Shown here: positions 907 to 61,052 of the stretch, in pieces
Position numbering within the stretch: the first letter of the stretch is position 1
How the letters are laid out: each line of letters opens with the position of its first letter
From: Psammoneis japonica
Lineage: Eukaryota
DNA: 61,052 nt
Assembly (NCBI GenBank): GCA_008632985.1
Contig: QPGO01000034.1
Span: 573,311 to 634,362, forward strand
Direction of reading: 5' to 3'
Notes under the pieces: model-generated
Databases searched by the model: none
Seen by the model: only the letters and a program-made list of their open reading frames with translations
Told to the model about the DNA's origin: nothing
Program-made: the position numbers and the translations under genes

Positions 907-941
<35 letters not shown>

Positions 942-8702: not shown

Positions 8703-9308
8703 CTATTGACTCGTGCCGAGTAGTTCGTAGTAGCCTTTCCCGGACATATGAAGGCCGTCCGGAGCCCAATTTGCGTCACTAGGATAGAACCTTATTGGGA
8801 ACGGAACGAATGTCGCTTTTGAAGATGCTTCGCAATATTCTTCGAGACCTTTATTTATTGCATTCGCCAACAGTGCCGCGTCTTGAACAGCACGCTGATA
8901 TCCTGAAGGAGGGATACCGATACACATGGTTGACACACCCTGTCGGTGACAAACATCGTGCAACTTCTTGATAGAGTCCAGGATGGGTTCAGGATTGCTC
9001 TCGTAACCGAGATCATTGGTTCCTGCTAGGATAATGACCAATGAGAGGGATGGATCAGAAACAGCTCTTATCAATGAACGTACACCAATCTGGGGAGCAT
9101 CTAGTTTGTTAGCCATCTGAGATGCTGTTATGCTGTCCATCCCGGGCGGGAGGCCTCGGTGACGCACAACGACGTCATCTGTGGATAAGTCATTTCGAAG
9201 AAAAGATTCCAAATGAGGAGCATAAGGAAATTCCTGCGTAGGAGGAGGAGAGGCACCAGCCGTGAGCGAATCCCCATGAGTTGTCCCACACTTCCAAAAG
9301 TGGGCCAT
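8703..9308 (-). CDS. SGNH/GDSL-family hydrolase; native 5' end apparently replaced by decayed TE sequence (possible pseudogene)
   Basis: Blocks GDSLTAG, GLPPG, IILAGTNDLG, DGLH. Upstream of GDS the sequence switches abruptly to TA/CG-depleted DNA. The nearest in-frame ATG (9308) lies in that DNA. Confidence 0.75.
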   Translation of the reverse strand: MAHFWKCGTTHGDSLTAGASPPPTQEFPYAPHLESFLRNDLSTDDVVVRHRGLPPGMDSITASQMANKLDAPQIGVRSLIRAVSDPSLSLVIILAGTNDLGYESNPEPILDSIKKLHDVCHRQGVSTMCIGIPPSGYQRAVQDAALLANAINKGLEEYCEASSKATFVPFPIRFYPSDANWAPDGLHMSGKGYYELLGTSQ

Positions 9309-11650
9309 CAGAGTTGCCAGTGCTTGGGTCTGTCTCAAGAAGCATCTCCATGACACCCCTGAGGAGCATCGTGCTGGACAGTGCAGCATGGCAGCATGCT
9401 GCAACCCTTTCGGTCAAGTTTTGACAAGGCTGCTTTGCCTTCCTCTGGCACTGGATGTGTCAAGTGCCATGCTGCATCCTTCAGAGCCTCAAATTGACAG
9501 ACAAGATGCAATGGAGTCCTTTCTCCCTGTGGCTCAATGCTCAGCAGCGCATCCAGATGAGCTCAAATGAGGGCCTCAGCAATGTCTGCATGGGGGCATC
9601 TTTGATTGCAGGTGTGATGGAACACAGTCCATCCGTCCTGTCCAGCACAACCTGCACATTGCCGGCAACTGTGGCATGGCTCTGGTGCAGCTCACCAGTT
9701 TGCAATGCACAGGGCATTGTGAATCAAAGAAGGGTCATCTTGTGCAAGTTGCAACATGTTTCCCAGGCTTGTGGGCTGGTTTGATGAAATCATCCCATGT
9801 CACAGCATGGGCCCGAGCCCCCCATCTGAAAGAAAGTCACCACTGCTGACACCCCAGCTCTGGTGGAAGACAGAGTTGCTTGACAAATCCGATTTGTCTC
9901 ACGTGCATCCTGCAGAAACTCAGTTGCATCTGTGCCTTCCTGTGCAACTGCTGTGGTTGTTGCAGCTCTGCCAATGGCAGAAAGAATTGCAGGATGAGTC
10001 TGTGTCTGAGTCTGCTGACAGCGGACAGAATTGCAGGATGAGTCTGTGTCTGAGAGGAGTCAGGTGCATTTCCCAAATGCTCTGATCCTTTTTCTTCTTG
10101 ACCGCAGGACTCCCCATTGCGCTCCGCCCCTGTTGATGCCACTGTTGGCAGACGCAACAATGAATTGTTGTTTGCTTCTCACCTCTTTTTTGTTGCAACC
10201 TTTGTCACCATTTTTAAGAGAGTGGTTGCGTGCAAGATGCGCAACTCCACCATGTGTTTGGGTTGGACTTTGCTCTTGTTGCACCTCCTCCTGCTTTGCT
10301 GTTCAAGGCACTCAAGCTCTGCTGTTGGCGGCTGCACCACTCTCTGATCTTGCACTTCACCAACCAAGAATCATGTTGATGACAACTTGCACGCTGATGT
10401 CCACAACATGTCACTGCAGACCATTTTGGCAAGCACGTTCTAATGTTTGTGTCCTCCAAGGATTTCCTTGATCAGAAGCTCCAAATGCCTTGAGCTTGGA
10501 GAAGCTCAACCTGCTTCTCCACTGGGCTTGGAAGCTGCTTGGATGGTTGCACAATTCTGAGAGGTTGACGGTTGGCATGCCCAAGTGCAAACCCAGTGAA
10601 CTCCTGACAGTCCTCCACAATTGGAGGAGCTCCAAGGTTGGTTGGTTGCTTGGGGAGCCATCTTCTCCACTTTGGACAAAAGAGAAAGATGAGACACCAA
10701 GGTCAGTCATTTGGAGAAACCTGGCAACACTGTGACCCCAGCTGACTGGCTTGTGAAGGTCACCCAGATCCAGCATGGTCCAAAAGGGCATTTGCAGTGG
10801 CGGGAACACTCCCAGCCTGCCAGAGCAAAGCTCCAAGCCTTGCTGTTTGCACACTCTGATGAGACAAGTCAGAAGCAGCAAAAGCAATCCAGGCATCATG
10901 TGCAGGAGCTGGCTTGGCCCATGGAATCTCTCTGGGTCAAAGACAAGGGCTGACTCATTGTGGCATTGCAGGCTGATCAAGACAACCAAGCCAAGCCACT
11001 GCGTCAAATGGCACCATGTGCAGCTTGTGGGCAACTGCGCGAGGCACGCCACTTGGCAGAAGCAGGGTTTCTTTCAGCATTGTCAGCCCACAATGGCAGG
11101 TTGATGCAGCCAACACCATTGTCACCAGCGGCCTGCCAAATGCAGTGAGGGCAGCTGGGGTGGCCTCTCATTGTCATCCATCATCTGCCTGTCTGTCTCC
11201 TGACACGAGCAACTGTCCGTCATGTGGCAACTCCTCCAAGAGCTTGGCCGCTCACCAGGTGGCCTCTCCTTGTGCTGGGCCCACCATCTTGGCACCAAGG
11301 AAATGGCACGCACAGGGGCAGGTTGTCAAACAGTGTGGGGTGCCACACATGACAACAGCGCTGACATGGAAGGTCATCCTCTGAGCAATTGCACCTTGTG
11401 TGCGGCACAAATTTCATGCCACACACAAGGTGGAGGACATGACAAGGTTGCACTGCACACAAAGGCGAGTCCATCACTCACTCAATGGGGTGATTTTTAG
11501 AGTTGTCACACATTGCCCCTTTGTCATTTTAATCAAAATGGTCAAATGCAGCTTTAAACTGCCATCATGCAGTGCAGGAGATGGCAGATCTTGTGGCACA
11601 AATGTCACCAGTCTAACACCAGCAACAAGACAGTCAACACAGAAAATGTG
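9280..11650 (-). mobile_element. Heavily decayed Ty1/Copia pol remnant (RT/RNase H, possibly integrase)
   Basis: Only weak residual motifs on the minus strand: EKQVELLQAQGIW (RT start, about 10480-10520), LVKCKIR (cf. VKKYKAR), and an LTKG-like end near 9410. Many frameshifts. Confidence 0.4.
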
Positions 11651-14285
11651 AAGGCATGCCAAGCAGAAAGAATTGCCATTGTCAGCTGTGTTGCTTGTTC
11701 CTGTCTCTCTGACATCATTTCTTCTTTTGCAGCACCCCCTCCTCTCTCACAGCAAGCTTGTCTCACCTGCTTCCTTCCTGTCACCACATGCTGCACACAT
11801 TGATCAAAGTGTTTTGCTTTTCAACTCTGCCACAAAGTGCTCTGAGTTGGCAGTGCAAGAGGTCACTGTTCATGATGGTGTGCACTCTTGAGCCGCCACC
11901 TGGCACCAATGCTGTGCAAAGTTGGCATGCTTCTCTCTGTGTGGCTTCTTGATTTTGCTCATGCCATCCTCTCACAAAAGCAGGCCTTCATTCTCTTGCC
12001 CCAGTGCTTCTGTTGCTGCCATCCACCTTGCATTGGTGCATGCTGGAGATCATTTCTGGCCTCCTCAGCTTGCTGCTCCAACACACAGAGCTGCTTTCTG
12101 CTTTTGCCACTGCTCTTGCTCATGATCTTGGTGCTTCTGTGAAGCATGATTGTGCTGGGAGCTCTGCACCAAAGCTGCAAAGATGATTTGGAGGTCACAG
12201 AGCACATGCTTGTGCTCTCATTTGACAGAAGCAGCACATGGCAGCAGAGAGACATCTCCAGCAAGCTCTGGCCCTCCCTTGTCCTTTTGGAGATTCAGCA
12301 ACAAGAAGTGCCAAAGCCATTCTTTGGTGTGAGGCACCAGCTCTCATCAACAACTGGGCTGCACCCCAAAGGGGTGCTGAAAACACTTTGCAGGGTGCTG
12401 CTTGGTTGTGGACAATGTGTGAGGATTCTTGGCTGGCCCTGCTGGGGTGGCAATGAGCTCTTGCTGGGTTGTGCTGCAGAGCATCTCAACTGCTTGCTTT
12501 TTGCACCCAAAACAGTCTCACAATTTTCCCCTTTGGCACCTTGTTCATCCCCCCTCCACCCCCACTTGTTTCTTCAAGATGCAGCAGGCAGGGCTCTCTG
12601 TGAGATCTGGCATGCGGTGCTGCCTTGGCTTCCTTTGCTCTGCCTCCTGCAGCCATCAGCGCTGTGGCTGGACACACTGCTTCTGCACAAACTCCTTGTC
12701 TGCATGTCACACTTTGCTTCAAAAAATGTTCCTTGCCCTTGAGCGCAGCCACCTTTGGCAATGGGGCTTGTGAAAAGTCATCAGCTCGCCCCCACTTTAA
12801 AACCCATGTTGCTTTTTCTGTGCTGCTTGGTGCATTGCAGGTGACTTTGTGCATTCTTGAGCCACCACCCTGACCAAGGCTGTGCCAAGTTGACTTGCTT
12901 CTCTTTGCACAGCCTCTTGGCTTCACTCATGTCATCATCACAAAAAAAACAATCTTTTGACGATTGTCATTTCTGGCCACCTCAGATGCTGCAGCATCTT
13001 CCCAAGCTTTTTTTGCCAACACAAAATGCCTGGATTTTGCCCTTCTTCTTGCTTCTTCCTTCTTGCTCTGCCTTTTGCAGCTGCCAGTGCTGCAGCTGGA
13101 CACTCTGCTTCTGCACAAGCTCCTTGTCTGCATTTGCACTTTGCCTCACATGCTGTTCCTTGTCCTGAAGTGCAGCTGCCTTTGGCAATGGATGGGTGCT
13201 TGTGCAGTTGTTGGTTCCCCCCCTTTGACATCCAGGTCACTTTTGCAAGCTGATGACAACTCCTCTCACTTCACTTGAGTCAAGCCAATCAAAATCCCAT
13301 GCCCACACCAGGGACATTGCCTGAAATGACTGAATTTTTGGTCACCTCAATTGTTTGTGGCAAGTGGAAGATCATGAGCATGAACAGAGCTGAACAACAC
13401 ATAAAAACATTGAGGACACTTTTGTTCAATGTGACTGGCAATGTCCAAATGAAGTCTTTCAGACATTTTGCTTGTTTTCCCACTCTCAAACTGCAAATTC
13501 TAAATCTTGAACTGTGCAGTTTCAGATTTGTAAATCTCAAACTAGACAGTTTCAGATTTGTCACAATCTCAGGCTAAATCTGAAACAAGGCAATTGCATC
13601 AGAGGCTGCAACACAAAAGTGCTCAACAAAATCCAATTGTTTGGCATGTTTCATCTGATGTCTCACTTGCTTTTCTTGCACAAGCTTCAATCAAATGCAT
13701 GCAATGTTTGATTTAATTGGGATCAAAATCTGTTTTTTGTGATGCATGGTTTGGTTTCCTTTTGATGGTCATCAATTTTGAACTTGGTTTTGCCTTTGTC
13801 TTCCCCACTCATGTGCATGTGTCTTGCACGTGTGCAGTCTGCTTCACGCACCCCACCCTCATTTTAAAAATTTTCTTCATGCTTCACAGCCCGCTGCTGG
13901 TCTGTGGTGTTTTCAGTGTTTTTTTTTTACATGTGCAATTTTCCACACACTTCACAACAGCGCACCGTTGCAAAAAACGAGAGCATGCGCTGTTGTGGTT
14001 CAGGTGGATTCTGTGTGTGATCACAAAATCTGCAAATTGACAACCTGCCATGGTGGTGAAAGACATCACCCCATTGGCCCATGACAGCAGCTCAATGCAT
14101 GGTGAGACCTGCTGTCCTTCTGGTTGGCAAAGACGGTTTTTGATTGGGGCGTTGCTTGAGTTTCATGATTGTGAGTGTGCTGCCATGAACCCACCACATC
14201 AAAAAAGCATCATCCAGAATGCCAAAACAGCACGCTGTTGTGTGCACGCACTTCACAATTTTTTCCGCAGCATTGATCGAGCATG

Positions 14286-15790
14286 TCAGAGTTTTGCATC
14301 TGGAGTTGTCGCAAGTCGCCACAAATGACACTCTTCAAACAAGGTGGCACTCACAAAAAGAGGTTCATTTGCATCTTGTGCATTCACTGACGTTGCATCT
14401 GTCTTCTCCAATTCTTGTGCACAGATCCAGAAAGACTGCAGAGGCAGAGAGTTGATGTTTGGGAGACCTGGCGGTGTGATTGTGCACATTGTTGGCATGG
14501 CGTACGTGTGGCATGTGGACATTGCATCCATCTCCTCCAATTCTTGTGCACAGATCCAGAAAGACTGCAGAGGCAGAGAGTTGATGTTTGGAAGACCTGG
14601 CAGCCTGATTGTGCATGCTGTTGGCACAGCATGTGGCCACAAGTGGGGATCAATCGCTTTTGGCCAGTGATGGCAAGCATGTGTTGTTCTTTTTTCTGCC
14701 CTGCCATTTTGAAAGTGTGTGTTGACTCCACAACAGGTCACATGCTGCCCTTGTTGGCACACCAAGTTGATGAATGCATTGTCTGCAAAACATCTGTTGG
14801 CATGACAGTGTTGGACATTTGCTCCAAGGCTTCTGGCGATGGCTTCACAAGCAACTTTGGCATGCAAGGTTTCTTCCAAGGTGGTCAATTTTTGTAATTA
14901 CACAAATGACAGGTTGCTGCAATGGTCAATGAATGCCATGATGCAGCAACATCATTGTCATGCTGGCATGCCCTTGAGTTGGGCCATCAGCCCAGGTGTG
15001 GTTGCATCGAGTTGGTTGACAGACACCACTTGGACAGCAGCTGTGGCCTGGAAGATTTTGGTTTGTTGCATGCCCTTGGTTCACCGTGGTGCTTTGGTGG
15101 CTTTGCTGCAGCAGCATGCAGCACACATGGGTGCACGGCAATCAGCGAGGTGCTTGGGTGGATTGCTGGAACAAGCCACATGCTTGATGTGTGAGAATGG
15201 CAAGTGTCCAAGTCAGCAGTGCCAGAGCAGCAGTTTGTTGGTGGGAGTCAAGTTGGCTGGGAACGGCTCATCTTCAATGACTGGGATGCCAATGTTTGCA
15301 TCAGAGAAGGCTGCTGCATTGGCGGTCATGGCTTCTGTTGTTGTTGCAGGAGCCGTGACGGCAGATGGATGCACAGGCATTGCATCAGCTGTTGTGGTGC
15401 TGTTGTCAATGGCTTCATCAAATGTGCAGCATTTGGGTGGTGCAGTGGTCTGTGCCTCAGACAAGTCTTCAGGTTCGGGTTCAATGATGTGTGCATTTTG
15501 AAACACTTTTGGTTCTCGGGATTGCAGGTTGCACTCAAGCTCAAATTTGTTGTGTTTGTCGTAGAATGGAGCAGAGTGAAAGACCGGTGCATTTGCTTGG
15601 GAGAGTGGCACAATGCAAGAGCATTTCTCGTCTTGTCATCAAAGGATTGTTTGATCATGCAGTGTCTTTTCATGAGTGCCGTCCAGACTGTTGGAAACTG
15701 GAGCTTGTGTCTCTGGACTTGTGCCTCTGGATGGCAAGCCTCGGGCATCATGGTGTTGTTTCCGTCAGCATCATTTAAATAAAACGCAAA
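14286..15790 (-). mobile_element. Ty1/Copia (CoDi-like) GAG-pre-integrase and integrase remnant
   Basis: LLLWHC*LGHLPFS, CRAPMCAAC, VVSVNQLDATTPGLMAQLKG, EETLHAKVACEA, VQHCHANRCFADNAF, TCCGVNTHFQNGRAEKR, LWPHAV. Contains a 129-bp-period internal duplication at about 14394-14630. Confidence 0.85.
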
Positions 15791-17869
15791 CAACAAAACA
15801 GAACATTTGCAACAAAAATGATTTTAATTTGCAGGTTTTGTGGGAATGGAGGGTGGGCACTCTCACAGGGAAAAGGGCTGGCTGTTTCATGGTTAAAGGT
15901 GGCATCTCATGGGACAGGTGGGGGCTCCACAGCAACAAAAAGTCATCTGTCACAAACACAAAATTATTGCCATGTACACAACTGTCAAGGTTTAAAACCA
16001 CAGCCATTTTAACTGTGATGCATTAAAAAATTCACTGTGAGAAAGTCAATCTGGATCACTGTGCAGTGCACTCTGATGTGTCGGGTGACAAAATGTGCCA
16101 GAGTTCTTGGCCAGTTCACTTTCTGTGTGGCCTGGTGCAACCCAAATCTGTGCAGACTCAGCACATTTTGACCTGTGGAAGTTTTCTGGCTTGCGGCTCA
16201 AAACAACACAAAAATGACACGGACAACGGCATTTTGCGGATTTGAAAAATGCAGTTGTCTCTGGGTGGGATAAAAACCCAAACACTTGCAACGGAATCTG
16301 TTGTGTTGTGTTGTGTCATTGTGTGCCAGACAAGCTCTGGAACACTTGGGTTCACATGGGTGGATCATGGTGAAGTTTCGTGCTGAAGATCAGCATTGAG
16401 AGCACTGTTTCTGTCACATTTTGATGCACCTGATGCATCGCCATTCATGCTGTGTGTTTTGTTCAGGCTTTTGACATTTGCATCTTTTCAACTTGCATGT
16501 GTTTTCTCTTTCTACATTGTTCTTTTTTGTTGTGATCATTGCATTTTCCCAAGAAGACCAACAAACATGGTGAGAAGCAAGAAATGGAGGGAAGGGTCAG
16601 AGGCAGAAGCTCTTCTGAAAGCAAACCTTGCAGATGGCATCCATGAAACAATGCAACCAAAAGAGCTGTGGAATTCTCGAGATGAACACAAAGAACTCAA
16701 GCTGGGTGCATTTTGGGGCACATTTGTCAAGAAGTGCAGTTGGCGAAGTTTGTCAATTTTCAGAAGAAAAAGCAGAAGAAAAAGGCTGCAAAATGAGCCA
16801 GGTTGAATGCCGTTGATGACTGACAAGAAGGGCTGCATTGTGGCCACTGTGTTGTTCTGTTAGATTGTGACTTGTGCAATTTTGAGTGCCCCAAAGACTT
16901 GGCAATGGTGCTTTCTGAAAAACTTTTGTGGCCAAGGTCTGCACATCAACAAAGCAATCATTTGCACATGACAACTCTTTGGTTGGAAGGGATTGGGAGC
17001 CAGTGCATGTCACATGGTGCCAGCCCTTTGCACGGTCAAAGGGATCTGTCACAAATGGCAAAGACCCCATTGTTTTTCATTGTCTTGACGGCTTTGTCAA
17101 TCTCAAACTGTGGCATTGTCAAAATCCATCTTAAACTGTGTCACCAAAAATCACGAAATCTCAAAGACAAAATCAAAACCCGAAACCACATTGTCTGAAT
17201 CTTAAGAGGGGTCACCCCCTCGTTCATCCTAGAATCGCCGTGCAATTTGAGTGAGGCTGTTGCTTGTCAGTGTTTGTTTTTGAATGCAAAAATCATCCAG
17301 ATTCCCACCCAATCATGCATGAAAACGAAAAGCATCAGCACCATGATCGAAGCATGACGATGATGCAATCGTCGACATTTCTCAAAAACGCAGCATTCCG
17401 CCTCTGTGCCATCATCTGATGCTGATCACACAATGCATGGCAAGCACAACACCAATGAGAGCACGGAGCCCACACACTTCTGTCACACACTTGTGGCTTG
17501 GAGCATCTTCGCCAGTGAGTCGCAGCAAACACAACCACAAATGCAGGAACATGACCTGACAGGACAAGCAAACAGACCACCACATTTAGGCACACAACTT
17601 GGGAAAAAGCATCCTCGTCAGTCAGTCATAAACTCATGTTTGCATTTGCACTCTACACTCCAGTCCAAGCAGTCGAATTCTTGGTGCACCATTTTTTTCT
17701 GCATCCAGCATTGTGCAGCGCCCCTGTCAAAGACTCTTTGGCACACATCACAACACACAGCTGCATCTTGACAAGTCGCACGCACCATGAATCCTGTCCT
17801 CCGGCTGCCGCCACTTGCACTTGGCACTGCAATGCTCTGCATCTGCACTCTCCTCTTGGAGGAAACATG

Positions 17870-18509
17870 GAGTGTTGGAGACACTGAGAACGTTGCGGGG
17901 GTGGTGCAAGCCATTCTCAATGCAAGGCTGTCCAGGAAAGTCAACAAGAGGAAATGCCATGCCGGCACAAACATCTGTGATGAAGAAGAGCAGCGTGGTG
18001 AGAAACGTGCCAAGCCTGATTGTGGTGCAGGTTTTTCTGCCATCACAAGACACTGCCTCGGCTCAGATGATGTCATGCTGCGTTTCAACAACAAGCAGTT
18101 CAAGCACACCTTCAGAATCATGAGGATGATGTGTCAAGACATTCTCAATCAGCTCTGTGGGCATGACAGGTTTTTCATTCACAAATTCAATGCTGCTGAA
18201 AAGCCTGGCATCTGCCCAGAAGTGAAACTCCTGGCTGCTCTCAAGACTGTTTGTTGTGGTGTGTCTGCCAACTGTTTCTCTGATTGCTTTGAAATGGGAG
18301 AAACAGCAATGGGTGGTTCAGTGAAACACTTTTCACAAGGAGCAAGGCACTCATGTGGCAAGACTCACCTGAGGAAGATGACCCAAACCAATGCTCATTG
18401 GATGACCAAGCTGCATGAGGATGCATTTGGTGTGCAAGGATTCTTGGGATGCCTCGACTGCATGCATGTGTTCTGGAAGAACTGTCCCATGTCATGGAAA
18501 GGACAGTTT
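17870..18509 (+). mobile_element. PIF/Harbinger-type DDE transposase, N-terminal half, truncated after WKGQF
   Basis: FKHTFRI, GICPEVKLLAALKTVCCGVS, FSDCFEMGET, HLRKMT, GFLGCLDCMHVFWKNCPMSWKGQF (family pattern G.LGSLDCMH..WKNCP.AW.GQ). Confidence 0.88.
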
Positions 18510-29060: not shown

Positions 29061-29067
29061 ATCACAG

Positions 29068-47916: not shown

Positions 47917-48136
47917 GAACCATGCAAAAGTCATTGCACTCTGTTTCGTGCACAAACACCACTTGCGAATTTGGTCATTTTGAAAGTGGTCAGCCCCAAA
48001 CCCCGACTTCATCTCACCCGTCTGTCCGGTCCGTCATGATGAATTCATCTGGCTGGTGGTCGACTTGTCCAGAGACTGCAGCTGCCAAAACTTGTCAATG
48101 CACTGCATTCAATGAACACATCAACAGCGTGGCTCA

Positions 48137-51393: not shown

Positions 51394-52500
51394 GGGCGCG
51401 CTGAATTAATCTCACGTGTTGGGCGCAACCTTCGCGGTGAAGGGGGGGGGAATCGTAAAATCACGTTTTATTCTGTAAAACACGTGCTTCGTCGTGTAAA
51501 ACACACATTTTGGCTCATTACCCTATATCTTACTTCCTCCGGTAAGCGATAATTGTCCACGAGGAAACACCATGTTATTCTTTTTGGGCCGTACGACGTA
51601 GTACTGCTTCTACATATTTTTTGGATGTGCGGTCGGAACGCGCACCGTCACAGCGTTCGCACAAATCGGCACAAAACACACCGCAATGACCGAAATACCG
51701 CCGCTGCCGACACGACAACACGTTTCCGCTACCCTGACAGGCATCCAACTTATCAATCAACCCACAAGCGACTATGTATAGTGTTGAAACGATATCGTTT
51801 GGCCTGTTTTTGCGTCTGCATCGTTGATGGAAGATCGTCTTTTTCGTTTGTACGGGGTTTTACGTGCTTTGGCTCGACGGCAATGGTGGAGCGGCTCTAC
51901 AAACGACAAAATCGGATTAAAGGTCCTGTATCATGGCACTTTCGATCTCAGGGGATGATGGATAACCAGTACATGGTGTATTATCGTTGAAATGAGTGGT
52001 TTTGGGCAGTCAGCGGCCGAATTCTTGCCGTCATTGTCGCGAAGCACGGCGTTCCACCACGACGTGAAGATCCATGTCGAAATTGAATCAGGTTATGAGC
52101 GTAATTATAATTATGTAGAAGCAGTGCTACGTCGTACGGCCCAAAAAGAATAACACGGTGTTTCCTCGTGGACAATTATCGCTTACCGGAGGAAGTACGT
52201 AGGATCCTACGTAGCAGGCTTTTTCGAGCATTCGTCGGTCTGTCGTCGGTCATTTTTGATGGCGAACCCAAACCAGAAGGAACCCGGAAGTTAACATTCA
52301 CTGTCAGTGCGCGCGATTTGAATGCGCAAACAGCAAAAACTGCTCGACTCACTCGACTGTCGAAAGCACCATGACGACCCAAGCCGCTGCTTGTTACTAG
52401 GGCGTTTTACAAAACAGGGGTGTTTTACACATTTTGACAATCTGGGGTGAAAGTGGGGTCAGGGGCACCGCCCAATGTGTGAGATTAATTCAGTGCGCCC
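51394..52500. mobile_element. Non-autonomous TIR element (32-bp TIRs, subterminal GTAAAACAC repeats) inserted in the satellite
   Basis: GGGCGCGCTGAATTAATCTCACGTGTTGGGCG / CGCCCAATGTGTGAGATTAATTCAGTGCGCCC. Flanking duplication is TGGG or GGG (ambiguous within the G run). Confidence 0.85.
51533..52195. mobile_element. Tc1/mariner (Stowaway-like) MITE, 663 bp, 84-bp TIRs, TA TSD, nested in the previous element
   Basis: TA|CTTCCTCCGGTAAGCG... (51533-51616) and ...CGCTTACCGGAGGAAG|TA (52112-52195). Two mismatches between the TIRs. Confidence 0.92.
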
Positions 52501-53075
52501 TGGGACATCTGGATGATGATTCGGATCTGTTGGGGGCATGGAAATGAAAGCAACATCATTGGAAAGCTCTCAGTTCTGTAGATGGTGTTGTTGTCATTTA
52601 TTGTGTCATATTTTGAGTGCTTGTAAAGAAACGCCCACATGAGCAAAATGCAATGGGATTTTGGCGCACAACTGCGGGGTGGGCAGGACATCTGGATGAT
52701 GACTCGGATCTGTTTTGGGGGTGTGGAAATGAAAGCAACATCATTAGAAAGCTCTCATTCTGTAGATGATGTCATTGTCATTTATTGTCTCATAATTTCA
52801 AGCACTTCAAAAGCAATGCCCACTTGAACAAAACGCAACAAGATTTTGGCATGCAACTGCTGGAACGTTGTGACATCTTTGTGCCAATTCGGATCTGCTC
52901 TGGAGGGCCACAGACACAAAAGTCACACCATGAGACAGCTCTGGTTCTGTGCATGATGTTTAACAAATTGCAGTCTGTGGCAAGCACATCTGAAACCAGC
53001 TAAAGTGCATCCATCTCTGTGAGGACGTCGCATCTTTCTCGAATTTAGAGCTCAACATTGAGCACAACATGAACC

Positions 53076-53405
53076 AATCATCTCGTTCCTGAATGAAACC
53101 GGGCTCAAAGCATTGCACAAGATGCCCCACTCGTTTCGATCCTGAGGAAAATCGTGTCTTCACAAGGCTCCCATTTTAATCATCTCGTTCCTGAATGAAA
53201 CTGGGCTCAAAGCATTGCACAAGATGCCCCACTCGTTTCGGTCCTGAGGAAAATCGTGTCTTCATTGAAAACCTTCACAATGCCACATGTCAGCTTTACA
53301 AGGCTCCCATTTTGATCATCTCATTCCTGAATGAAACCGGACTTAAAGCATTGCACAAGACACCCCACCAGCAGTTTCCATCCTGAGAAAAATCGTGTCT
53401 TCATG
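53076..53405. repeat. Three irregularly spaced copies of an ~85-bp unit
   Basis: ATCATCTC.TTCCTGAATGAAAC.GG.CT.AAAGCATTGCACAAGA...AAAATCGTGTCTTCA at about 53077, 53179 and 53315. Confidence 0.85.
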
Positions 53406-54139
53406 ATTTCTGCGACTGTTTTCTGTCTGCCCTCGTGGAAGCAAATTCCACAAAAAATGGAAAACATTCTCAAGACAATTCATTTCATTCATTGGTGGAT
53501 GAGAAGGAGACTGCGACTGGTGCAACCCAGTCACCGCAGAAACCAAAGCATTGTGGCTGATGCAAAGCATTCGTTTCATTCATTTGGATGTGGTGTGATC
53601 AATGGGATGAGACTGCGACTGGCGCAACCCAGTCTCTGCAGAATGTGGGACAATCCTGCGACTGGAGCGCAACCCAGTCACTGCAGAATGCAGAAAAGAT
53701 CCTGCGACTCCCCCTGCAGAAGACTCTGTGACTGGTGCAACCCAGTCACCACAGAGGACGAAAGAGATCTGCAGCTCTGTGGCTGGTGCAACCCAGCCTC
53801 CACAGAGGCACTTTTTGTGTGGCTGAGACTGCCAACCTGTGTCATCAGATCACTGGCAAGCCTCCACGCTCCTTTGCACAAAGGTGTGCTCACAAAAAGT
53901 GAGAGCTTTGGGGGAAGCAAAAGTGATGAGTGCCCTGTTCTTCTGTGCTTTTGGCAAAGATTCTGACTGCGAATGCGCGTGCACGAATGACAGCAGACGG
54001 TTTTTTTTTGAACTGCCAGCCAGACGACCTGCAGCATGAGCTGCGCGAATGCAGCGCATGTGCGCAGCAGTGCGTGTGGCTGGATGTGAGGAGCTGCTGC
54101 ATGGCTGATGTGTTTGGCATCTCGTTGCTTGCATCAACT

Positions 54140-54537
54140 GATGCGTTCCAGCTCTGGGTGGGACCTCGTGCTGCTGAACTGTGACACAATCATTTTTTGT
54201 CATCCGTCGCATGTTTCACATGCACATTTCTGTGTGTTCCATTGTAAAAAATTGTTCCACACTGCCTGTTTTGCGAAGCCAAAGGCTTTCTGTTGTCTGC
54301 ATTTGTGACAATAAAAATGTGCTGGGTGTGTTCTTCAATGTCTGAAGAACACACCCGGGCATGCTGCAAAGAATGTGCTTCAAGTGTGGAGGAGGAGACA
54401 TGTTCACAAAATTGCCTCTTTTTCTGTTGGCGATCATTCATGTGTCCATTGCTTGACAATTTTGCTGCAAAGCTGGCATGCAGAATTTTCCATGGGCCCA
54501 ATGTCACAAAAAGTCCCACCTGGGACTGGAGCCCGTC
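54140..54537. mobile_element. MITE family X, old hypermutated copy (4-bp TSD AACT)
   Basis: TIRs GATGCGTTCCAGCTCTGGGTGGGAC / GTCCCACCTGGGACTGGAGCCCGTC, with AACT on both flanks. The ends align with 42084-42477. Confidence 0.9.
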
Positions 54538-55863
54538 AACTTTCTCTTTTGCCATTGCCAATGTCATGACATGCTGCCATGAGACCCAGGCCTTGAACAA
54601 CTTCAAACTGGCATGGTTGGTGCGTTCCGAATGAGCGTGCAGACCATCGTGGCAACAACTGACATGGAGAAATTGTCAAAAACCCGCCGGAGCCGACGAT
54701 GACATTGATGCAGCAGACAAGGTGTCCAAACATTTGTCATTTTTTGGACCATTGCAACAGAAGCTCCATTAGACCCTCATTGACGTGCGGCTGCAATTGT
54801 CCATTCGGAGACGTTCATTTTGGTGAGAAATGTCAAAACACACCGTCTCGCTTTGTCGTGATGCAGTGTTGCTGCAGACGATGCATCAACTCACCATTTG
54901 CCGGATTTTCAGAACCTGATGTGTTAAAGTCCAAGTTTGTAAAAAGGCAAGTGAATGATTTAAAATCAAAATTGTGTTGTCAACATGTCCAAGGCTCACC
55001 ACTTGTTGTCTCACTCAACTTTCTTGCTGCCGCAGCCAGCTCTTTTGTTGTCTTTCCCAGCGTGAGCACATGAACGAATCATCCAACATCGTCGTCATGT
55101 CATCTGTCCCATTTGAGCAACGGCATTGAACAGACAAACATTTGTGAGACTTTGACAAAGCAACTGCAATGCATTCAGCCAAGCATTCTTGAATGGGGGA
55201 GAGTCGGGCGGACGGCAGTGAAAATTGAAAATGCAGAATGAAGTTGGCACACGGTCAAAGAAAAAAGCAGTCAAACAACGTTGACAATGTTGCTCTGATG
55301 CTGACATTCTATAGAATGACAAATGGCAGTGAATGGAGCTCCTCCCTGGCTCGCACCCACTTTAGATTCATCGCAAAGTTGCAAATGTCACATCTCAAAA
55401 TGGAAAAGTGTGACTTGAAATGAGCACTCATGGGTTGCTCTGCCAACCCACAGCATGAAAGAGGTCAAACACAGTTGTCAGGAGGCCAGCCATGGATTGG
55501 AGAATGGAATGTGGACATGAAATGGGTCTTGTGTTGATGTCATCATCTAATCTTGGAGTCGAGTCGAGAAAGGAGAAAGTCTCAACATTGCACAGTGAGT
55601 CACGTGTCTTGAATCCCGCGTGACCCACTCGACTCAAAGTTTTTGGAAGAGTTGGCTAGACCACTTTGACCCCCACTCTAGAGTCACAAAATGCACAAGA
55701 CATGAGCATTGTTGGTGTCACACTCTTTAAACCGATGTCTTTTGAGAGTGCAACAAGTGTGCATTGTTCATGGTGTCAGGCATTTGAAAATGGAAACTGA
55801 CTTTTCGCGGAGCACCTTTGTTGCGAGGGCAAGTGCGAGAGTCAATTTTCAGTGATTGGTTGG

Positions 55864-56441
55864 TCCAGCTAGAGCAACTGATGTTCACCCCCATTCTCCA
55901 GGCCCTGAAAAGTGTGCCAAACCTCGTGTGTGCACACGGGGGGTCATTTTTTACATGTGGCATCATGGAGCTGGGGCGGAAAGCTGCACCACGTGTTGTC
56001 CATCTGTGTCTCCCCCCTGCCATGACCCCAAACGGACCGGAGACACACAGCCAGGTAAGACGAAGTCAGGGTTTTGGGCTGACCACTTTCAAAATGACCA
56101 AATTTGCAAGGGGTCTTTGTGTGCAAAACAGCATCCAATGACTTTCTAGAGCAACTGATGTTCCAGCTAGAGCAACTGATGTTCCCCATTCTCCAGGCCC
56201 TGAAAAGTGTGCCAAACCTCGTGTGTGCACACGGGGGGTCATTTTTTACATGTGGCATCACGGAGCTGGGGCGGAAAGCTGCGCCACGTGTTGTCCATCT
56301 GTGTCTCCCCCCTGCCATGACCCCAAACGGACCGGAGACACACAGCCAGGTAAGACGAAGTCAGGGTTTTGGGCTGACCACTTTCAAAATGACCAAATTT
56401 GCAAGGGGTCTTTGTGTGCAAAACAGCATCCAATGACTTTC
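55864..56441. repeat. Recent tandem duplication, period about 295 bp
   Basis: 55864-56146 versus 56162-56441: one small indel and two substitutions. Confidence 0.95.
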
Positions 56442-56849
56442 GCACACTTCGGAACATCACAAAAGTTGCTCTGTCAACAAGTGCAAAAAATTCCGAATTT
56501 TTTGTTGCCTCAGTCATTTTCTGGTTGGGGTGCCATCAACTCCTGGCCAATCGATTGGCCATTTCTTGTCTTTTGTTTGTCAACCCAAATCTGTTTTAAT
56601 GTGATGCACTGCTGTTTTCATCATGATGATGCACATTTGGATTTTGTGCTTTTTGTGTGCACACCCACTTTCAAACTGGGGATCGTGCGCAAACAATTCA
56701 ACCCTCTTGTTTCTGCACCTGACAAGGACAATTGCATGATGCAAGCCTGGCAGCTTTCAAACCAGGGTTCATGCGCAAACAATTCAACCCTCTTGTTTCT
56801 GCACCTGACAAGGACAATTGCACGATGCAAGCCTGGCAGCTAGATTTTT

Positions 56850-58060
56850 GCCATCTTGTCAAAAATCATTTTCTGATGACTGCAATCTTTGGTTGTGATG
56901 CCTTGCACAGTCACTCACAGCAGGAGCCTGAGAGCCTTCTTGGACCCCTCTCTTTTTTTTTTGTTGTGTGTGCTCCTGAAGTGACCAAGACGAAACTCAC
57001 TCAGCGCCAATGCCGCGCCCTCAATTTCCTGCCTTCAAGCTTCTTCCTGAGACAAAGCCCCTTTCTTGTTGTCACTCTGGTCAAAGTTGTTGAGAAAACC
57101 AGGCTTGCAGTTGTCTCCCCTTCCTCCTGGAGCTTGTGGTGCACAGTCATTGCATTGTTGCACAAAACTGGGAACTGAGTCATCTGCACCCTCTGACTGA
57201 TTCTTGGAATTCTCTTGTGAATGAAACTCATCACAGCAACAGGAAAGTTGACAATGCATGACTGAATGTGATGCAAGCTTTTCCTTGCAATGAGATGCCT
57301 GAAGACAATGGACACTCAACTTGTGAGACACAGGCTGACCTCCCCCATCAGCGGCCATCAACCCGGACCTCATCAACTCTGAACCATCAAAAAGACATCT
57401 TCTGACAGCCCTGATCCCTCAAAAAAGCCAACAGTGTTGCTGGCCTGCCTCATCTCCACATTCTCATTGAGGCTCATTGTCAGAGAGGGTCATGACCATG
57501 GGAAAGCTTGAGAAGTGGGTCCACATTGAACATGATGCCTGTTGATTGATCCCCGGCTTGCTTGATGTGAGCATCTGGACAGGCTGCAAACAAAATGTGG
57601 TTGGACATCTGATCTTGAAAATCCACATGCTTGCACATGCTGATGCTCTGCTTTTTTCCATTTGAGGTTGCTTGCTCAGAGCAGGACAACAACGAAGGCC
57701 AAGGCCAGCTGGTGGCTGTCGTGGGGGTCAGAAGAGGTGGCTTTGCAAGAGATTTTGAGTGTTTTCTTTCTGTGGCGCCTTCTTGAAAATGCTGCCATTG
57801 ACAGCATTCCTGCCCAGATTGGCAGCGGCAACAGAGCAGGTTGCACTTCTTGGGTTCGCTTTCCAGCAGTGTCACCAGGCCATGACGAAACCGCGTGCTC
57901 TCTCATTGGTTTCTTTCACACACCATCTGCTGTCAACTCTCGAATTGTTCAAAAGCATGAAAGAATCTCACCCCACACTGGATCATCTTTAAATTGGTGG
58001 ATTCTTCCTCTGAGTTTGATGAAACAGTTCACCCATTCTTGATGCCAGCCAATGCATGTT
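56850..58060 (-). mobile_element. Second Helitron-like Pif1 helicase, C-terminal half, decayed
   Basis: QEWVNCFIKL..HQFKDDPVWG near 58040-57970; QFPVLCNNAMTVHHKLQ and LTRVTTRKGLCLRKKL near 57180-57030. Confidence 0.75.
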
Positions 58061-58664
58061 CATGAAGACAATGAGACACAGCCGTTCAGCGAAGCGTCCA
58101 ATTGTTGATTGCGAGCTCTCGCGTCGAAAACAACCTCGAATTGGTTCCTCCTTTGTGGCAGGAACTCTGGACACGAAGTGAGGAGGTGTGGAACCCGGGC
58201 TGGTTTGGATTGCCATGCGCGCGAGCATCAAATTTTAGATCTTTGATCTTTGCTTGCCACCAATCATTTTTTAAAAAATTCGCACGCTTGAATGATGGGT
58301 TCGCAATTAATTAATGTGCGACGTAATTCTACATCAATGTTTTAACATTGTGTCAAAAAATGGCGATTTAATTTTTGCACTCGTGTGTGGACACATCATA
58401 AGAAGAGACGTGGGTTTCCCCTTTTTGACAATTCTGGTGTGATCGTTCTATGGCAGATGACAAGAGAACTGTCCTGACGTTGTGTGTCACTGGTTGCTGA
58501 GTGTGTCCATCATTGCAACAATGTGCCAACACCGATTTGTTAGATTAGACCCTTTGTTTTCTGTCGGTTGTTGCCGGGCACGCCTGCAAGCCCGACACAA
58601 AGCCTGGAACATTTTCCAAAATGCAGAAATGATTCCCATGTGCAGTGTCAAAATGTTCCATTTG

Positions 58665-61052
58665 TCAATTGGACTGCAAAATGTCATCACACTGTTCGTT
58701 GGTGAAGTGTGCGACACTTCTTCCTTCCATCAACCGGAGCAGGGCGTTGCACCCATCCGGCAGTCTGTGTGGACTTAAATCTCTCTTCAGCGGTTGCCGA
58801 AGATGCAGACCATTTCTGGTCTTGACCCTGGAGAGCATGACATGTGCCCAGTTTTGTGTGTGGCTCCAGCTGTGTGCAAACACATTGTTGACACCGCTTC
58901 CTTGAAGCTTGTGTCCTGCAGTCGCATTGTTTGTTGTGAATGGCAACTGGGTTGCTTTCAGTCCAAGCATGTGTTTCTCTTTTTCCTCAGCTGTCATCCA
59001 TTGGGTTGGGTCCTTTAAACAGGCTTTGAAAGTGGGGGACTTAGGCTTGAGCGAAAAGGTGGGTGGATCGATGCTTTTGTTGCCATGCTTGAGCTCTACA
59101 TGATCCACCTGGGATGCTGTGACACCTCGAATGGATGTTCCACAGTCCAAGACCACTTGCGATGAATGTTCTCCTGGTTTCAGCACGACTTTTGCTGTGG
59201 TTGCTTGTGTTCCGTTGCAATGCCATTTGCCACATTTTCATTGTGCGGGATCATAACTCTACATCCCTTGCATGTTCGTAACACTGGATCAAGCCTGCCA
59301 GATTGCATTTCCACATCGCTCTCTCCACAGTTTTTCCAGAATGTTTTGTGCACCGGGAAAGGCCTGCACTGTCTTGCTCCATCACGCACTTGCAAGTCGT
59401 CACTGAAAATGGCTAGAGAGTCCAAGACTTCTCCATCTCTTTGGTGCAGTCTCTTGGTCCTTTCCTCAAACAAGGCTGTGTTGATGGAGTCTCTTTCTTT
59501 GTTTCTGCACGATGCACATTTGATGTTCTCTGGCAGTTGTTGACCCTTTCTTGCTGCTCTTTCATTGATTTTGTTGACATCTTCGAGAGTCGCTTCGCCA
59601 TCTCTAAATCATTTTAGCAAACTGCCCCATTCTGGATCCTCACTGAATCTGTGCATCCCATGCAACTGGATGTGGCAGTTCACCCATTCCTGGAATTCGG
59701 CACAGGTCTCCTTGTGCAGAGGGTGCATTCCGTGTCCAACTGGCTCGAGTTGTCTCAGGTCCCCTGCAAACACTGCACTTGCACCCCCATGAGGCCTGTC
59801 TAAATTGGATTTCACGATGGATAGATTAGCATGTAATTTTTCTAAATCTCTTCTGCAAGCAAATGACATTTCGTCGACAATCAGCAGACGAGTGTCACTC
59901 CAGCTTTCCATTTGTGTTTCTGTTGTTTCTTTTTTCCTGTTTAGACAGGCAACTCTGTGAATGGTGTCTCCTTTCAGAATTGTCGCTGCAACTCCGGTCA
60001 TGGCAGTGACGGCAATTGTTTGTGCAGTGAATGGTCGTTCAATTAAAGAGCAACATTCTCTTGTGCACAAAACAACAAGATCGACAACAGTGGATTTGCC
60101 ACTTCCTCCTGCTCCATGCAAGAAACAAATTAACTGTGTGCCTCTTTGTTCTCGCACTTCAACTAACTCAGCTAATCTCCTGTGTTCTTTGTCAAACTCG
60201 TGTCTAATTCCTCCTCTTACATTGCCACTTGCTTGTTCTCCCAGAGCGTCTTTGCAGCACGTCAAAATGAAAGTTCCTGCCATGACTTCAAAAGCACGAC
60301 TTTGATGTGGGTCTAGCTTGGCTTTTTTTGACCAATCAACTAAGCTTTTAGCTGAGCCGTTAGCTTCAAGGACATCAACGGCTTCTTCCGAATTAGTTGT
60401 GTCTTGGAAAGATCGTTGAATGCATCCAGTCTTGGTCAGCAATGCTCGAACTGTGTCTCGTTTCCTAATTTGAGGCACAGGTTCTTCATCTGCTTGCATG
60501 CTGTTTTCATTGTCTTCTTCATTAACCTCAATTTCTGGTGGCTCCATTGTTTCTACGACAGGGACCGAATTGATGACAGTGTTTTGATCTGAAGAAGTCA
60601 TGCACATGCATGCCAAGTGCTGACATCCTGCAAGGTGACTTCCCTTCTGTCTGGTTTGTTTGCCACTTAAATTCGTGGGTGCGGCTGCTTCATCATTCGC
60701 TTCTGTCCTGTCTTCGTGTTCATGGTTCACCAATTCATCTAGAAGAGCATCAAGCATTTGTCCTTGCAAAGCCGTTCCGATGTCGTCTTCGGCGTCGCTT
60801 TTGCACCTTGTGCTAAATTCATTGTCGTCCGATGCATGCTCACGGGCAGTGCGTTTAAGAAAATCTGATGTGCTTTTTAATCGCAGACAATTAGATTTTG
60901 CATCTTGCAGATTTTGCAAGAATTTCAGATTTTCTTCAGTGACGATTTCTCTCTCCACCGCTTGACGGAATGATTGTAAGCAGGTTTGATCGAACAGTCG
61001 TGTGTCTGAGGCAGTCCGACATGATGTGAACAAAGCAAGAGCTGGCTTGCAA
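58665..61052 (-). mobile_element. Helitron-like Pif1-family helicase region (runs off the window end)
   Basis: FLHGAGGSGKSTVV (Walker A), TAMTGVAATILKGDTIH, LLIVDEMSF (Walker B), VFAGDLRQLEPV, HRFSEDPEWG, NNATAGHKLQG, NWAHVMLSRV. Stops and frameshifts after 59609. The Rep domain is not visible in the window. Confidence 0.85.

Follow-up and report, generated by a model that had tools for sequence, protein, structure and literature searches.

The window analysed here, the whole stretch of 61,052 bp from the diatom Psammoneis japonica, carries host genes at its start and a block of transposable elements (TEs) and satellite DNA beyond them. TpA and CpG values are observed/expected ratios (O/E), and no strand is given for features without one.

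1752–2927, minus: RNase HII gene (rnhB), spared (Pfam RNase_HII, E 8.8e-32)
3827–8598, plus: glutamate synthase (gltB-type), spared host gene used as control (Pfam GATase_2, Glu_syn_central, Glu_synthase, GXGXG)
8703–9413, minus: SGNH/GDSL hydrolase, host gene (Pfam Lipase_GDSL_2)
9241–22149: hypermutated repeat block 1 (TpA 0.06, CpG 0.27, CA/TG 1.85/1.76)
17772–18794, plus: Harbinger transposase relic in block 1 (Pfam Plant_tran)
21198–21224, minus: Helitron-type helicase motif in block 1 (motif in translation)
22150–27494, minus: DIRS/YR-like retroelement (GC 59%; three overlapping ORFs; 198-bp direct repeats at both ends)
25589–27397, 23247–26042 and 22354–23766, minus: the DIRS/YR-like ORFs, mutually overlapping
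27572–29637, plus: spared island with a 353-aa ORF (27999–29057), TA clusters and CpG at normal density
29801–42098: hypermutated repeat block 2 (TpA 0.05, CpG 0.18, TG 1.93)
32881–33430, inverted: 183-bp satellite array in block 2 (0–2 TA per monomer)
42099–42559: spared island adjoining the Gypsy 5′ LTR (29 TA and 26 CG in 461 bp)
42575–47916, plus: Gypsy-type LTR retrotransposon (LTRs 42575–42735 and 47756–47916; approximate target-site duplication)
45422–45769, plus: Gypsy reverse transcriptase (RVT_1, 22.5 bits, under the Pfam cut-off of 29.6)
45681–46124, plus: Gypsy RNase H (RT_RNaseH_2)
48677–49524, 50035–51388 and 52503–52960 (span 48677–52960), plus: three 183-bp satellite arrays (tandem repeat finder)
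53001–61052: hypermutated to partly mutated repeats with a Helitron-like PIF1 ORF at the end (TpA 0.14, CpG 0.51)
59612–61051, minus: Helitron-like PIF1 helicase ORF (Pfam PIF1, E 1.7e-15; PDB PIF1 matches)

For gltB, a spliced RNA contig shows four GT..AG introns of 78–84 nt, and the nearest named relatives are diatoms (84–89% identity). The GDSL motif of the SGNH gene lies near 9250–9280 by sequence and translation. The 353-aa ORF is probably a host gene; tyrosine makes up 2.3% of its residues and its Pfam matches are weak and sub-threshold (E ≥ 0.036). Among the TE classes named in an earlier, sequence-only reading, Harbinger, Gypsy, Helitron-like and YR/DIRS-like elements were verified, whereas the candidate Copia, LINE and PLE sequences gave no Pfam match. 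All ten peptide strings quoted there as examples of lost tyrosines are present in the translations, but the two assigned to a PLE (ARGC and IPCHP) lie at 540–671, outside the block and in DNA with ordinary TpA.

Extent and reliability of the TpA depletion

That TpA is nearly absent from the TE block and ordinary in gltB, rnhB and the SGNH gene, as had been proposed, is confirmed by dinucleotide counts far beyond chance. The genes (1–9240) have a TpA O/E of 0.56 (328 TA) and a CpG O/E of 0.98, and the block (9241–61052) values of 0.13 (422 TA) and 0.45, with CpA at 1.67 and TpG at 1.66. At the gene-like O/E of 0.56, 488 and 437 TA would be expected in the two cores, 9241–22000 and 29801–42000; they hold 52 and 36 (O/E 0.06 and 0.05, with CpG at 0.27 and 0.18; binomial log10 P of −143 and −139). 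The longest run without TA spans 1,329 bp (38633–39961). Across 9241–61052 the TpG and CpA ratios are raised to about 1.7–1.9, and the GC content of the hypermutated DNA is near 47–51%. About 90% of TpA has been removed while the number of pyrimidine–purine steps has stayed constant (23.6–24.4 per 100 bp), and in three blocks the combined deficit of TA and CG (954, 983 and 401) is balanced by an excess of TG and CA (1090, 1031 and 446). The cluster criteria of a preprint on TpA hypermutation in Bigelowiella natans (Mettrop et al., bioRxiv 10.64898/2026.01.13.699255) pick out 43 of the 52 1-kb windows in the block and none of the nine gene windows.

The loss ends within about 170 bp of host genes. 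It begins at or just past the 5′ end of the SGNH gene, where ordinary TA steps end at 9239 and no other TA occurs before 10215, exactly as had been noted by eye; the absence of TA from both 161-bp Gypsy LTRs was equally exact. The 1-kb bins of the RNase HII gene have TpA at 0.50–1.03 and CpG at 0.86–0.99. Within the block, islands of normal TpA and CpG lie at 27572–29637, 38457–38632, 42099–42559 and 51071–52624, and the TA-free Gypsy 5′ LTR starts just 16 bp beyond the third of these.

Could true TA and CG in modified repeat DNA have been misread as TG or CA during base-calling or assembly? The effect is limited to regions likely to be modified, and miscalls on opposite strands would yield TG-versus-CA doublets. 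Run X1, a DNA run of 657,387 contigs (140.7 Mb, k-mer depth about 61) that behaves like accurate short reads, nevertheless reproduces the bases; its platform is unrecorded and it may be the assembly's own polishing data. One of its contigs (10,090 nt, depth 61) covers 5000–11292, spanning the boundary over 6.3 kb, and shows a single difference; seven more span pieces of 13011–19580 with 0–1 differences. A base-calling artefact is thus unlikely, since this run, made up of numerous short contigs, returns the same sequence. The graded, copy-specific states of the satellite monomers, a tyrosine-less Harbinger relative (P0145) in an independent protein collection and the same signature in Illumina mutation-accumulation lines of B. 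natans, described by Mettrop et al., also speak against it, and we give an artefact very little credence. At site 10795 run X1 reads TA where the window has CA, the sole hint of ongoing mutation here.

Direction and timing of the mutation

The direction from TA to TG or CA, proposed from the lost tyrosines, is supported by satellite columns, LTR doublets, tyrosine columns set against gltB, outgroups with normal TA and the mass balance; the same independent tests bear out its restriction to repeats, with host genes spared, within the 61-kb window. The satellite arrays at 48677–52960 show graded mutation states, with a less mutated stretch at 51071–52624. Sixteen aligned monomers carry 0–7 TA each, and among their 44 pyrimidine–purine columns nine combine TA with TG and/or CA, seven of them showing all three states; 13 combine CG with TG and/or CA, and none contains both TA and CG. 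Within TpA, 40% of cells show a changed A and 32% a changed T, against 7–8% for other A and T. Changes from A to G are accordingly far from equal across contexts (56/158 at TpA, 36/541 elsewhere). In comparisons with other run X1 contigs, seven of the 40 differences examined (from 441 listed) have TA there and TG or CA in the window, and none shows the reverse.

The transposon proteins tell the same story. The Harbinger transposase (1,155 homologues at E ≤ 0.001) has Cys or His, encoded by TGY or CAY, at 4/4 covered conserved-tyrosine columns, as scored against 149 of the 150 homologues listed, P0145 being left out. DIRS-like ORF2 (654 homologues at E < 1e-5) likewise has His or Cys, from TGY or CAY codons, at 8/8 such columns when compared with 120 homologues. 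Conserved tyrosine is thus kept in 0/12 columns of the two proteins, compared with 10/13 in the gltB control. Helicase motif 58824–58850 also has His at a position that we take to be normally Tyr. TA→TG/CA creates no new stop codon, and long open frames therefore survive while tyrosine is lost.

These comparisons bear on the view that the elements were always poor in TpA, through composition or selection against a TA-reading factor, and that nothing mutated them in this genome. The DIRS/YR-like element lends it some substance: its end repeats are 96% identical and equally TA-poor, and run X1 k-mer depth over it is 154–475 where single-copy DNA has 61, which points to the multiplication of a copy that was depleted beforehand. 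This element had lost most of its TpA by the time it was last duplicated, so some of the depletion was passed on by already mutated source copies instead of arising in place. A check for relatives that themselves lack TpA and tyrosine found, however, that the TE relatives do carry both. The ORF2 columns that read His or Cys in the window are 55–98% Tyr among relatives, and environmental Harbinger relatives have TpA at 0.50–0.77 in 4/4 loci fetched. Hypermutated copies are rare for Harbinger (1/149 scored, plus P0145, among the 150 homologues listed) and absent from the 120 DIRS-like homologues. Satellite and non-coding LTRs are hit too, and LTR pairs have diverged by TG/CA doublets since insertion; a permanently TpA-poor origin is highly improbable.

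The timing follows from the Gypsy element, whose LTRs are 82% identical. Their 29 differing positions comprise nine TG/CA doublets, four CG-versus-TG/CA differences, four other transitions and three transversions. Differences between the paired LTRs of a single insertion require mutation after integration. A 155-bp duplicate pair shows three TA-versus-TG/CA differences. ADAR-like editing of transposon RNA, fixed into DNA by reverse transcription, would match the usual A-to-I preference for a 5′ U (Mettrop et al.), but is hard to reconcile with mutation after integration, with strands that are hit equally, or with the equal effect on Harbinger and Helitron-like DNA transposons and satellite; we regard it as scarcely credible. 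Retrotransposons, DNA transposons and satellite DNA are all hit alike.

Candidate mechanisms and known systems

We therefore consider it highly probable that repeated, selfish DNA in this diatom has undergone DNA-level hypermutation of TpA to TpG or CpA, on top of the decay of methylated CpG. The event would be a transition of the A:T pair in which the A of either strand is hit at TpA. TG and CA are about equally frequent, making the signature strand-symmetric, and no strand-coordinated runs of TG or CA outcomes were seen (z 0.04 to 2.2), so that nothing in their order points to a deaminase working processively on single strands. Because T→C on one strand is A→G on the other, adenine deamination and thymine modification look identical in sequence. 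Our tentative preference, at a little under even chances, is that an enzyme with the 5′-T/U preference typical of the TadA/ADAT2 family deaminates adenine in DNA to hypoxanthine. Such an enzyme might be directed to silenced, cytosine-methylated chromatin or repeats by chromatin marks or small RNAs.

Alternatively, thymine at TpA in silenced DNA could be modified by a TET/JBP-like enzyme to 5-hydroxymethyluracil, 5-formyluracil or a base of the J type, which mispairs with G to give T→C. 5-Formyluracil and similar bases do mispair with G, and dinoflagellate 5-hydroxymethyluracil is enriched at TpA; the strand-symmetric signature fits this route equally well. Adenine deamination, by comparison, readily explains the TpA rule through the 5′-U preference of TadA/ADAT and ADAR-type enzymes (Mettrop et al.; PMC11156358), and we judge thymine modification unlikely. 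A single dual-specificity deaminase acting on the C of CpG as well as the A of TpA would account for the spatial coincidence of the two depletions (Spearman rho 0.68 over 103 bins of 500 bp), and ADAT2 enzymes reported to deaminate both bases are cited by Mettrop et al. TpA loss exceeds CpG loss in every block. The DIRS/YR-like element has lost TpA (O/E 0.15) yet kept CpG (0.85), so the two processes are separable. Furthermore, the target base is 3′ in TpA but 5′ in CpG, and documented CpG methylation of diatom TEs alone explains the CpG decay (PMC9998398 and PMC5124317), making one enzyme for both rather less probable still than thymine modification.

The sequence-only reading knew of no described system of this kind. 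One exists: Mettrop et al. show experimentally that NCLDV and virophage DNA integrated in the B. natans genome is hypermutated A→G/T→C at TpA alone. Of the 231 de novo mutations counted in two viral inserts there, 230 were A→G or T→C changes, each of them at a TpA step, and TpA-depleted genes are enriched in TE-type RT and DDE domains. Changes only of A→G/T→C at TpA, giving TpG or CpA, are common to both hosts, and the process here is most likely of the same kind. The differences are nonetheless considerable. B. natans is a chlorarachniophyte (Rhizaria) and the present host a diatom (Stramenopila); the targets there are viral inserts, and here transposons of several classes and satellite; an NCLDV insert there has Rho 0.45, compared with near saturation here (O/E 0.05–0.06). 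Strong CpG loss coincides in the diatom, whereas a word search of the preprint text returned no ‘CpG’. The B. natans evidence is mutation accumulation in real time, and ours is an accumulated signature alone. A literature search found no report of TpA hypermutation in diatoms. Genome-defence-style DNA editing of this type had thus been reported once only, in an unrelated alga, and the diatom case is new and more extreme.

Fungal RIP resembles the present process in filling repeats with transitions in one dinucleotide context, sparing nearby genes and driving copies to diverge past resemblance. Its chemistry is the opposite: RIP converts C to T mainly at CpA, enriching TpA, lowering GC and making stop codons, whereas here TpA is destroyed, TpG and CpA are enriched, GC stays near 47–51% and TA→TG/CA makes no stops. 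Many diatoms carry RID-related DNMT4 genes of unknown function (PMC9998398); nothing connects them to A:T→G:C changes. ADAR and the fungal TAD2/TAD3 (ADAT) enzymes share the A→G change and the preference for U/T directly 5′ (PMC11156358; Mettrop et al.), but edit RNA, whereas here both strands of DNA are affected, including elements that are not copied through RNA. APOBEC3 likewise makes deaminase-style, context-specific transitions against selfish DNA; APOBEC deaminates C (plus-strand G→A) in single-stranded replication intermediates and leaves strand-coordinated clusters, in contrast to the A:T pairs hit here with no such runs seen. The decay of methylated CpG by 5mC deamination cannot remove TpA, but accounts for the half of the signature in which CpG becomes TpG or CpA. 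Conserved arginines that read His or Cys/Trp in the transposon proteins fit it, as do the satellite columns with CG and the DIRS-like end repeats, where five of the eight differences are at CpG and only one is a TG/CA doublet.

Boundaries of TpA depletion in the window

In 1-kb bins, the observed/expected ratio (O/E) is 0.41–1.03 for TpA and 0.86–1.11 for CpG over the first 9 kb, where the host genes lie. Between 10 and 22 kb the corresponding values are 0.02–0.12 and 0.08–0.49, with a mean TpG/CpA of 1.69–2.03, and between 30 and 42 kb they are 0.00–0.14 and 0.07–0.45, with a mean TpG/CpA of 1.68–1.99. Over the entire repeat-rich block CpA stands at 1.67 and TpG at 1.66. At the gene-like TpA O/E of 0.56, 488 and 437 TA would be expected in the two cores tabulated here (log10 P −143 and −139). 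A sequence-only reading of this DNA had claimed, by eye, a TA-free stretch at the start of the block and two TA-free 161-bp LTRs in a Gypsy element. Counting bears it out on both points: after the TA at 9239 the next one is at 10215, and each LTR holds 0 TA.

TpA and CpG observed/expected by segment
Genes, 1–9240: TpA 0.56 (328 TA), CpG 0.98
Block, 9241–61052: TpA 0.13 (422 TA), CpG 0.45
Core, 9241–22000: TpA 0.06 (52 TA), CpG 0.27
Core, 29801–42000: TpA 0.05 (36 TA), CpG 0.18

Features of the window
Spared left end: RNase HII, gltB-type glutamate synthase and SGNH hydrolase genes (Pfam)
5536–5619, 5796–5879, 6145–6224 and 7882–7967: gltB introns (contig of run X2)
17772–18794: Harbinger transposase relic (Plant_tran, and 1,155 homologues at E≤0.001)
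22150–27494: DIRS/YR-like retroelement, GC-rich (three overlapping ORFs; ORF2 with 654 homologues)
42575–47916: Gypsy-type element (LTRs, RT as a sub-threshold Pfam match, RNase H)
59612–61051: Helitron-like PIF1 helicase (Pfam and PDB PIF1 matches)
Four arrays: 183-bp satellite
27572–29637, 38457–38632, 42099–42559 and 51071–52624: stretches within the block with normal TpA and CpG

In this one window, hypermutation is found in selfish DNA only, with ordinary host genes alongside: genes 1–9240 and the island at 27572–29637, which encodes a 353-aa ORF with 2.3% Tyr, are unaffected, with depleted blocks in between. tRNA and Rfam scans of the window gave no match, so that none of the spared islands is a known RNA gene. 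A 552-aa gltB exon has its best named relatives in diatoms (84–89% identity), then in bolidophytes (79–80%) and other ochrophytes (71–75%), which places the window in a diatom. At 9241–9413 the TA-free zone starts either among the first ~55 codons of the SGNH ORF, which contain its GDSL motif, or slightly upstream of them; CpG persists in this short stretch. Although all affected DNA is repeat-derived, the stretch 9002–10335 is now single-copy at a likeness of at least 88% (depth 61); the original copy number can no longer be read, because mutated copies diverge.

The ten peptides quoted by the sequence-only reading for the loss of conserved tyrosines are all present, but two of them (540–671) fall outside the block. 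The 'PLE' motifs ARGC and IPCHP belong to a 189-aa ORF at 387–956, also outside the block and with ordinary TpA (O/E 0.59), for which Pfam gave no match; the assignments to Copia, LINE and PLE found no backing in Pfam.

Direction and timing of the change

Short accurate reads do not misread modified bases, and the fragmentation of run X1 (a DNA run of 657,387 contigs and 140.7 Mb, k-mer depth ~61 here) looks like that of such reads. In this run, taken from the one study with three runs that our search returned, a single contig of 10,090 nt matches 5000–11292 with one difference, and seven further contigs match 13011–19580 with 0–1 differences. This agreement is supportive and not independent, since the run may have fed the assembly and its platform is unrecorded. 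The sole mismatch to the single-copy contig lies at 10795: run X1 has T (TA) and the window C (CA). It is the single hint of change in real time, and an allelic difference, a mistake in the assembly or a recent TA→CA mutation could account for it. Other X1 contigs, from paralogues or alleles, differ from the window by transitions in 375 of 440 tallied places. Among the 40 differences displayed, the other copy has TA where the window has TG or CA in 7 and the reverse is true of 0; CG lies in the other copy in 11 and in the window in 2, 4 positions make up two TG/CA doublets (TG in one copy, CA in the other), and the rest are 9 transversions and 7 other transitions.

The two LTRs of one insertion are identical at the time of insertion. 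Those of the Gypsy element now differ at 29 positions, which comprise 9 TG-versus-CA doublets, 4 CG-versus-TG/CA differences, 4 other transitions and 3 transversions, and of the 6 differences between a 155-bp duplicate pair (at 21971 and 22349), 3 are TA versus TG/CA. The DNA transposons (Harbinger and Helitron-like) and the satellite show the same changes as the retroelements do. RNA A-to-I editing fixed by reverse transcription would also convert A to G, and we rule it out because elements that are not copied through RNA are hit and because the doublets between LTRs arose after integration. TG and CA are about equally frequent in the block, with no strand-coordinated clustering of one against the other and no runs of one state (z 0.04–2.2); either strand is hit, site by site.

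The direction of the change can be read in the satellite, for which we aligned 16 monomers with 0 to 7 TA each, giving 44 pyrimidine-purine columns. TA occurs together with TG and/or CA in 9 columns, 7 of them with all three states, and CG with TG and/or CA in 13; in 10 columns the states are TG and CA alone, 12 columns do not vary, and TA and CG share a column in 0 of the 44. Since TG and CA are two changes apart, the three-state columns have a TA (or CG) ancestor. With ancestors assigned accordingly, A within TpA is changed in 40% of cells and T in 32%, against 7–8% for other A/T; within CpG the figures are 30% for C and 37% for G, against 5–8% elsewhere. Counted by substitution, A→G is seen at 56 of 158 TpA and 36 of 541 other A, and T→C at 46 of 159 TpA and 30 of 553 other T. 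All these ratios are rough, because ancestor assignment leans to TA. GC-biased gene conversion, which also moves AT to GC, is rejected because the change is bound to one dinucleotide. The same 183-bp satellite lies in opposite orientations, 15 kb apart, at 32881–33430 and 48677–52960, with 0–2 TA per monomer in the former and up to 7 in the latter; these graded arrays are an internal time series of hypermutation.

Proteins point the same way. In ORF2 of the DIRS-like element all 8 columns in which at least half of 120 homologues have Tyr hold His (6) or Cys (2), encoded by CAY or TGY; at these columns each of the 120 homologues carries one Cys or His at most. Of the other residues, F is retained in 12 of 18 columns, W in 11 of 14, G in 34 of 36 and R in 33 of 45, the Arg losses including 3 His and 3 Cys. 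In the Harbinger ORF, Cys stands in 3 and His in 1 of the 4 covered Tyr columns, and a fifth, admitted at a looser threshold in a badly aligned tail, reads Asn. In the control exon of gltB, Tyr is retained at 10 of 13 columns of this kind and Arg at all 26. Two database homologues of Harbinger bear on the range of the signature: a 173-aa protein (P0145) has no Tyr and 6.9% Cys, with Cys at the same conserved Tyr columns, so the signature is present in at least one other Harbinger lineage, and another (P0122) is partly affected. The four environmental Harbinger loci that we fetched all have TpA O/E of 0.50–0.77 and CpG of 0.68–1.02. A metagenome scan with the hypermutated Harbinger ORF as query returned no relative, and a scan of IMG/VR with a DIRS-like relative found none. 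In the balance of dinucleotides, the combined TA and CG deficits in three blocks (954, 983 and 401) compare with TG plus CA excesses of 1090, 1031 and 446, and pyrimidine-purine steps stay constant at 23.6–24.4 per 100 bp.

CpG decay, known systems and the possible agent

TpA and CpG depletion co-vary (rho 0.68, 103 bins). Decay of CpG to TpG and CpA, putatively through methylation, is evident in the cores (CpG O/E 0.18–0.27), in the CG/TG/CA columns of the satellite and in the CpG differences between young repeats. Because CpG methylation of transposons is documented in diatoms (PMC9998398, PMC5124317), it would explain the CpG half of the signature. It fails as an explanation of the whole, as the TA deficits of the three blocks (439, 404 and 200) are about as large as the CG deficits, and the surviving fraction is smaller for TpA than for CpG in every block. 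The DIRS-like element at 22150–27494 has a TpA O/E of 0.15 and a CpG O/E of 0.85; having lost TpA and kept CpG, it makes the two losses separable. Its end repeats of 198 bp are 96% identical, with 8 differences that include 5 at CpG and one doublet, and its X1 depth of 154–475, against 61 for single-copy DNA, indicates several copies. An already TpA-depleted copy seems to have multiplied or been duplicated, so that the depletion was not all made in place.

The closest precedent is the alga Bigelowiella natans. According to a preprint, two integrated viral regions took up 231 of 302 nuclear point mutations in mutation-accumulation lines of this alga, 230 of the 231 being A→G or T→C changes, every one in a TpA context and amounting to ~6e-7 per site per generation; RT and DDE domains are enriched among TpA-depleted genes, and an ADAT2 homologue is proposed as the agent (bioRxiv 10.64898/2026.01.13.699255). 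In the diatom window, A→G and T→C changes confined to TpA, as in B. natans, are found in the satellite rates, in the three-state columns and in Tyr codons that now read TGY or CAY. By the window criteria of the preprint, here with CpA and TpG pooled in one ratio where its formula may differ, 43 of the 52 windows in the block pass, forming runs of 13, 2, 21 and 7, and 0 of the 9 in the genes. The diatom loss is most likely the same kind of process. New here are the diatom host, the target range, which spans retrotransposons, DNA transposons and satellite, the near-saturation of the signature and its coincidence with CpG decay; a word search of the preprint text finds no 'CpG'. A search of non-subscription full texts (main text in the case of bioRxiv) turned up no account of TpA loss in the repeats of diatoms, and SPLASH (PMC9258296) was a false lead. 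This second lineage suggests that the process is widespread among ecologically dominant algae.

To our knowledge, fungal RIP, which acts on cytosine, is the only case in which the permanent inactivation of repeats by mutation is understood in detail. RIP is a functional analogue of opposite chemical direction: it changes C to T at CpA (or other CpN), leaving an excess of TpA and a deficit of CpA/TpG, whereas the window shows the reverse, with TpA at 0.05–0.13 and CpA/TpG at 1.66–1.93. The first description of a counterpart that turns A:T into G:C dates from 2026 and concerns one alga (bioRxiv 10.64898/2026.01.13.699255).

A natural deaminase of adenine in DNA, strictly bound to TpA, is a possibility that the signature raises. 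Adenine would be deaminated to hypoxanthine by an enzyme of the TadA/ADAT2 type, which we infer because the requirement for a 5′ T matches the 5′ U preferred in ADAR editing (bioRxiv 10.64898/2026.01.13.699255) and in fungal ADAT editing (PMC11156358), and because the preprint names an ADAT2 candidate. Modification of thymine, which yields T→C and hence the same signature in sequence, strikes us as an unlikely origin. Guidance of the adenine deaminase may come from silent chromatin, cytosine methylation or small RNAs. Tentatively, and at somewhat less than even chances, diatoms and chlorarachniophytes, and possibly much of SAR, may share a chromatin- or repeat-guided TpA adenine deaminase acting on nuclear DNA, a natural DNA adenine editor that would be their main permanent transposon-killing system. 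Such a shared enzyme would have removed a larger share of TpA in the window than methylation-driven decay has of CpG, and its editing would offset the AT drift that decay causes. For identifying the enzyme by comparison, diatoms add a second lineage, and one in which CRISPR genetics is available, as in the knockout of DNMT5a in Phaeodactylum (PMC9998398).

The TA that survive hint at a flanking-base preference. Among 126 in the cores (9241–22000, 29801–42050, 42575–48200 and 53001–58200), TTAA is enriched 4.3-fold and CTAA/TTAG 3.4-fold over unmutated DNA, and ATAT (0), ATAC/GTAT (0.15) and GTAC (0.21) are depleted. This suggests, as a weak lead, that TAT and TAC are lost most and TAA and TTA spared most; new TA arising from the abundant CA and TG could also shape the pattern.

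Reading frames and individual elements

Conversion of TA to TG or CA erases TAA and TAG and makes no new stop, new stops coming from CGA→TGA alone, and the many long ORFs of the block fit with this; the window holds 67 of at least 150 aa. Tyr drops from 1.84% of six-frame codons in the gene region to 0.09–0.11%, and Cys, His, Gln and Trp are all up. Hypermutated diatom transposons thus keep long Tyr-less frames that evade Pfam and word-based searches, and such relics can therefore be mis-annotated as orphan genes. About 4 of 217 scanned block ORFs (at least 90 aa) show a TE domain (Plant_tran, RVT_1, RT_RNaseH and PIF1), and the Gypsy RNase H ORF returned no homologue in a word-indexed search and no PDB match. 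Alignment of the PIF1 helicase to its PDB matches was not decisive as to Tyr.

Run X2, a second run listed as 'DNA?', contains a 4,696-nt gltB contig that skips four GT..AG stretches of 78–84 nt (window 5000–8900), and because these are introns the run is RNA. Its depth over 9002–24999 is 0 save in three bins (0.25–7.35), which we do not take as evidence of silencing.

Around the Gypsy element, the 5′ DNA at 42099–42559 is normal (29 TA in 461 bp), the 3′ 316 bp (47917–48232) are without TA, and a putative target-site duplication matches at 4 of 5 bases. The DIRS-like element keeps three long overlapping ORFs and a YVDD motif despite having lost all 8 other conserved Tyr of ORF2. Near the end of its ORF3 a Tyr is kept in the motif 'RYLH', which we take to be possibly the catalytic Tyr.
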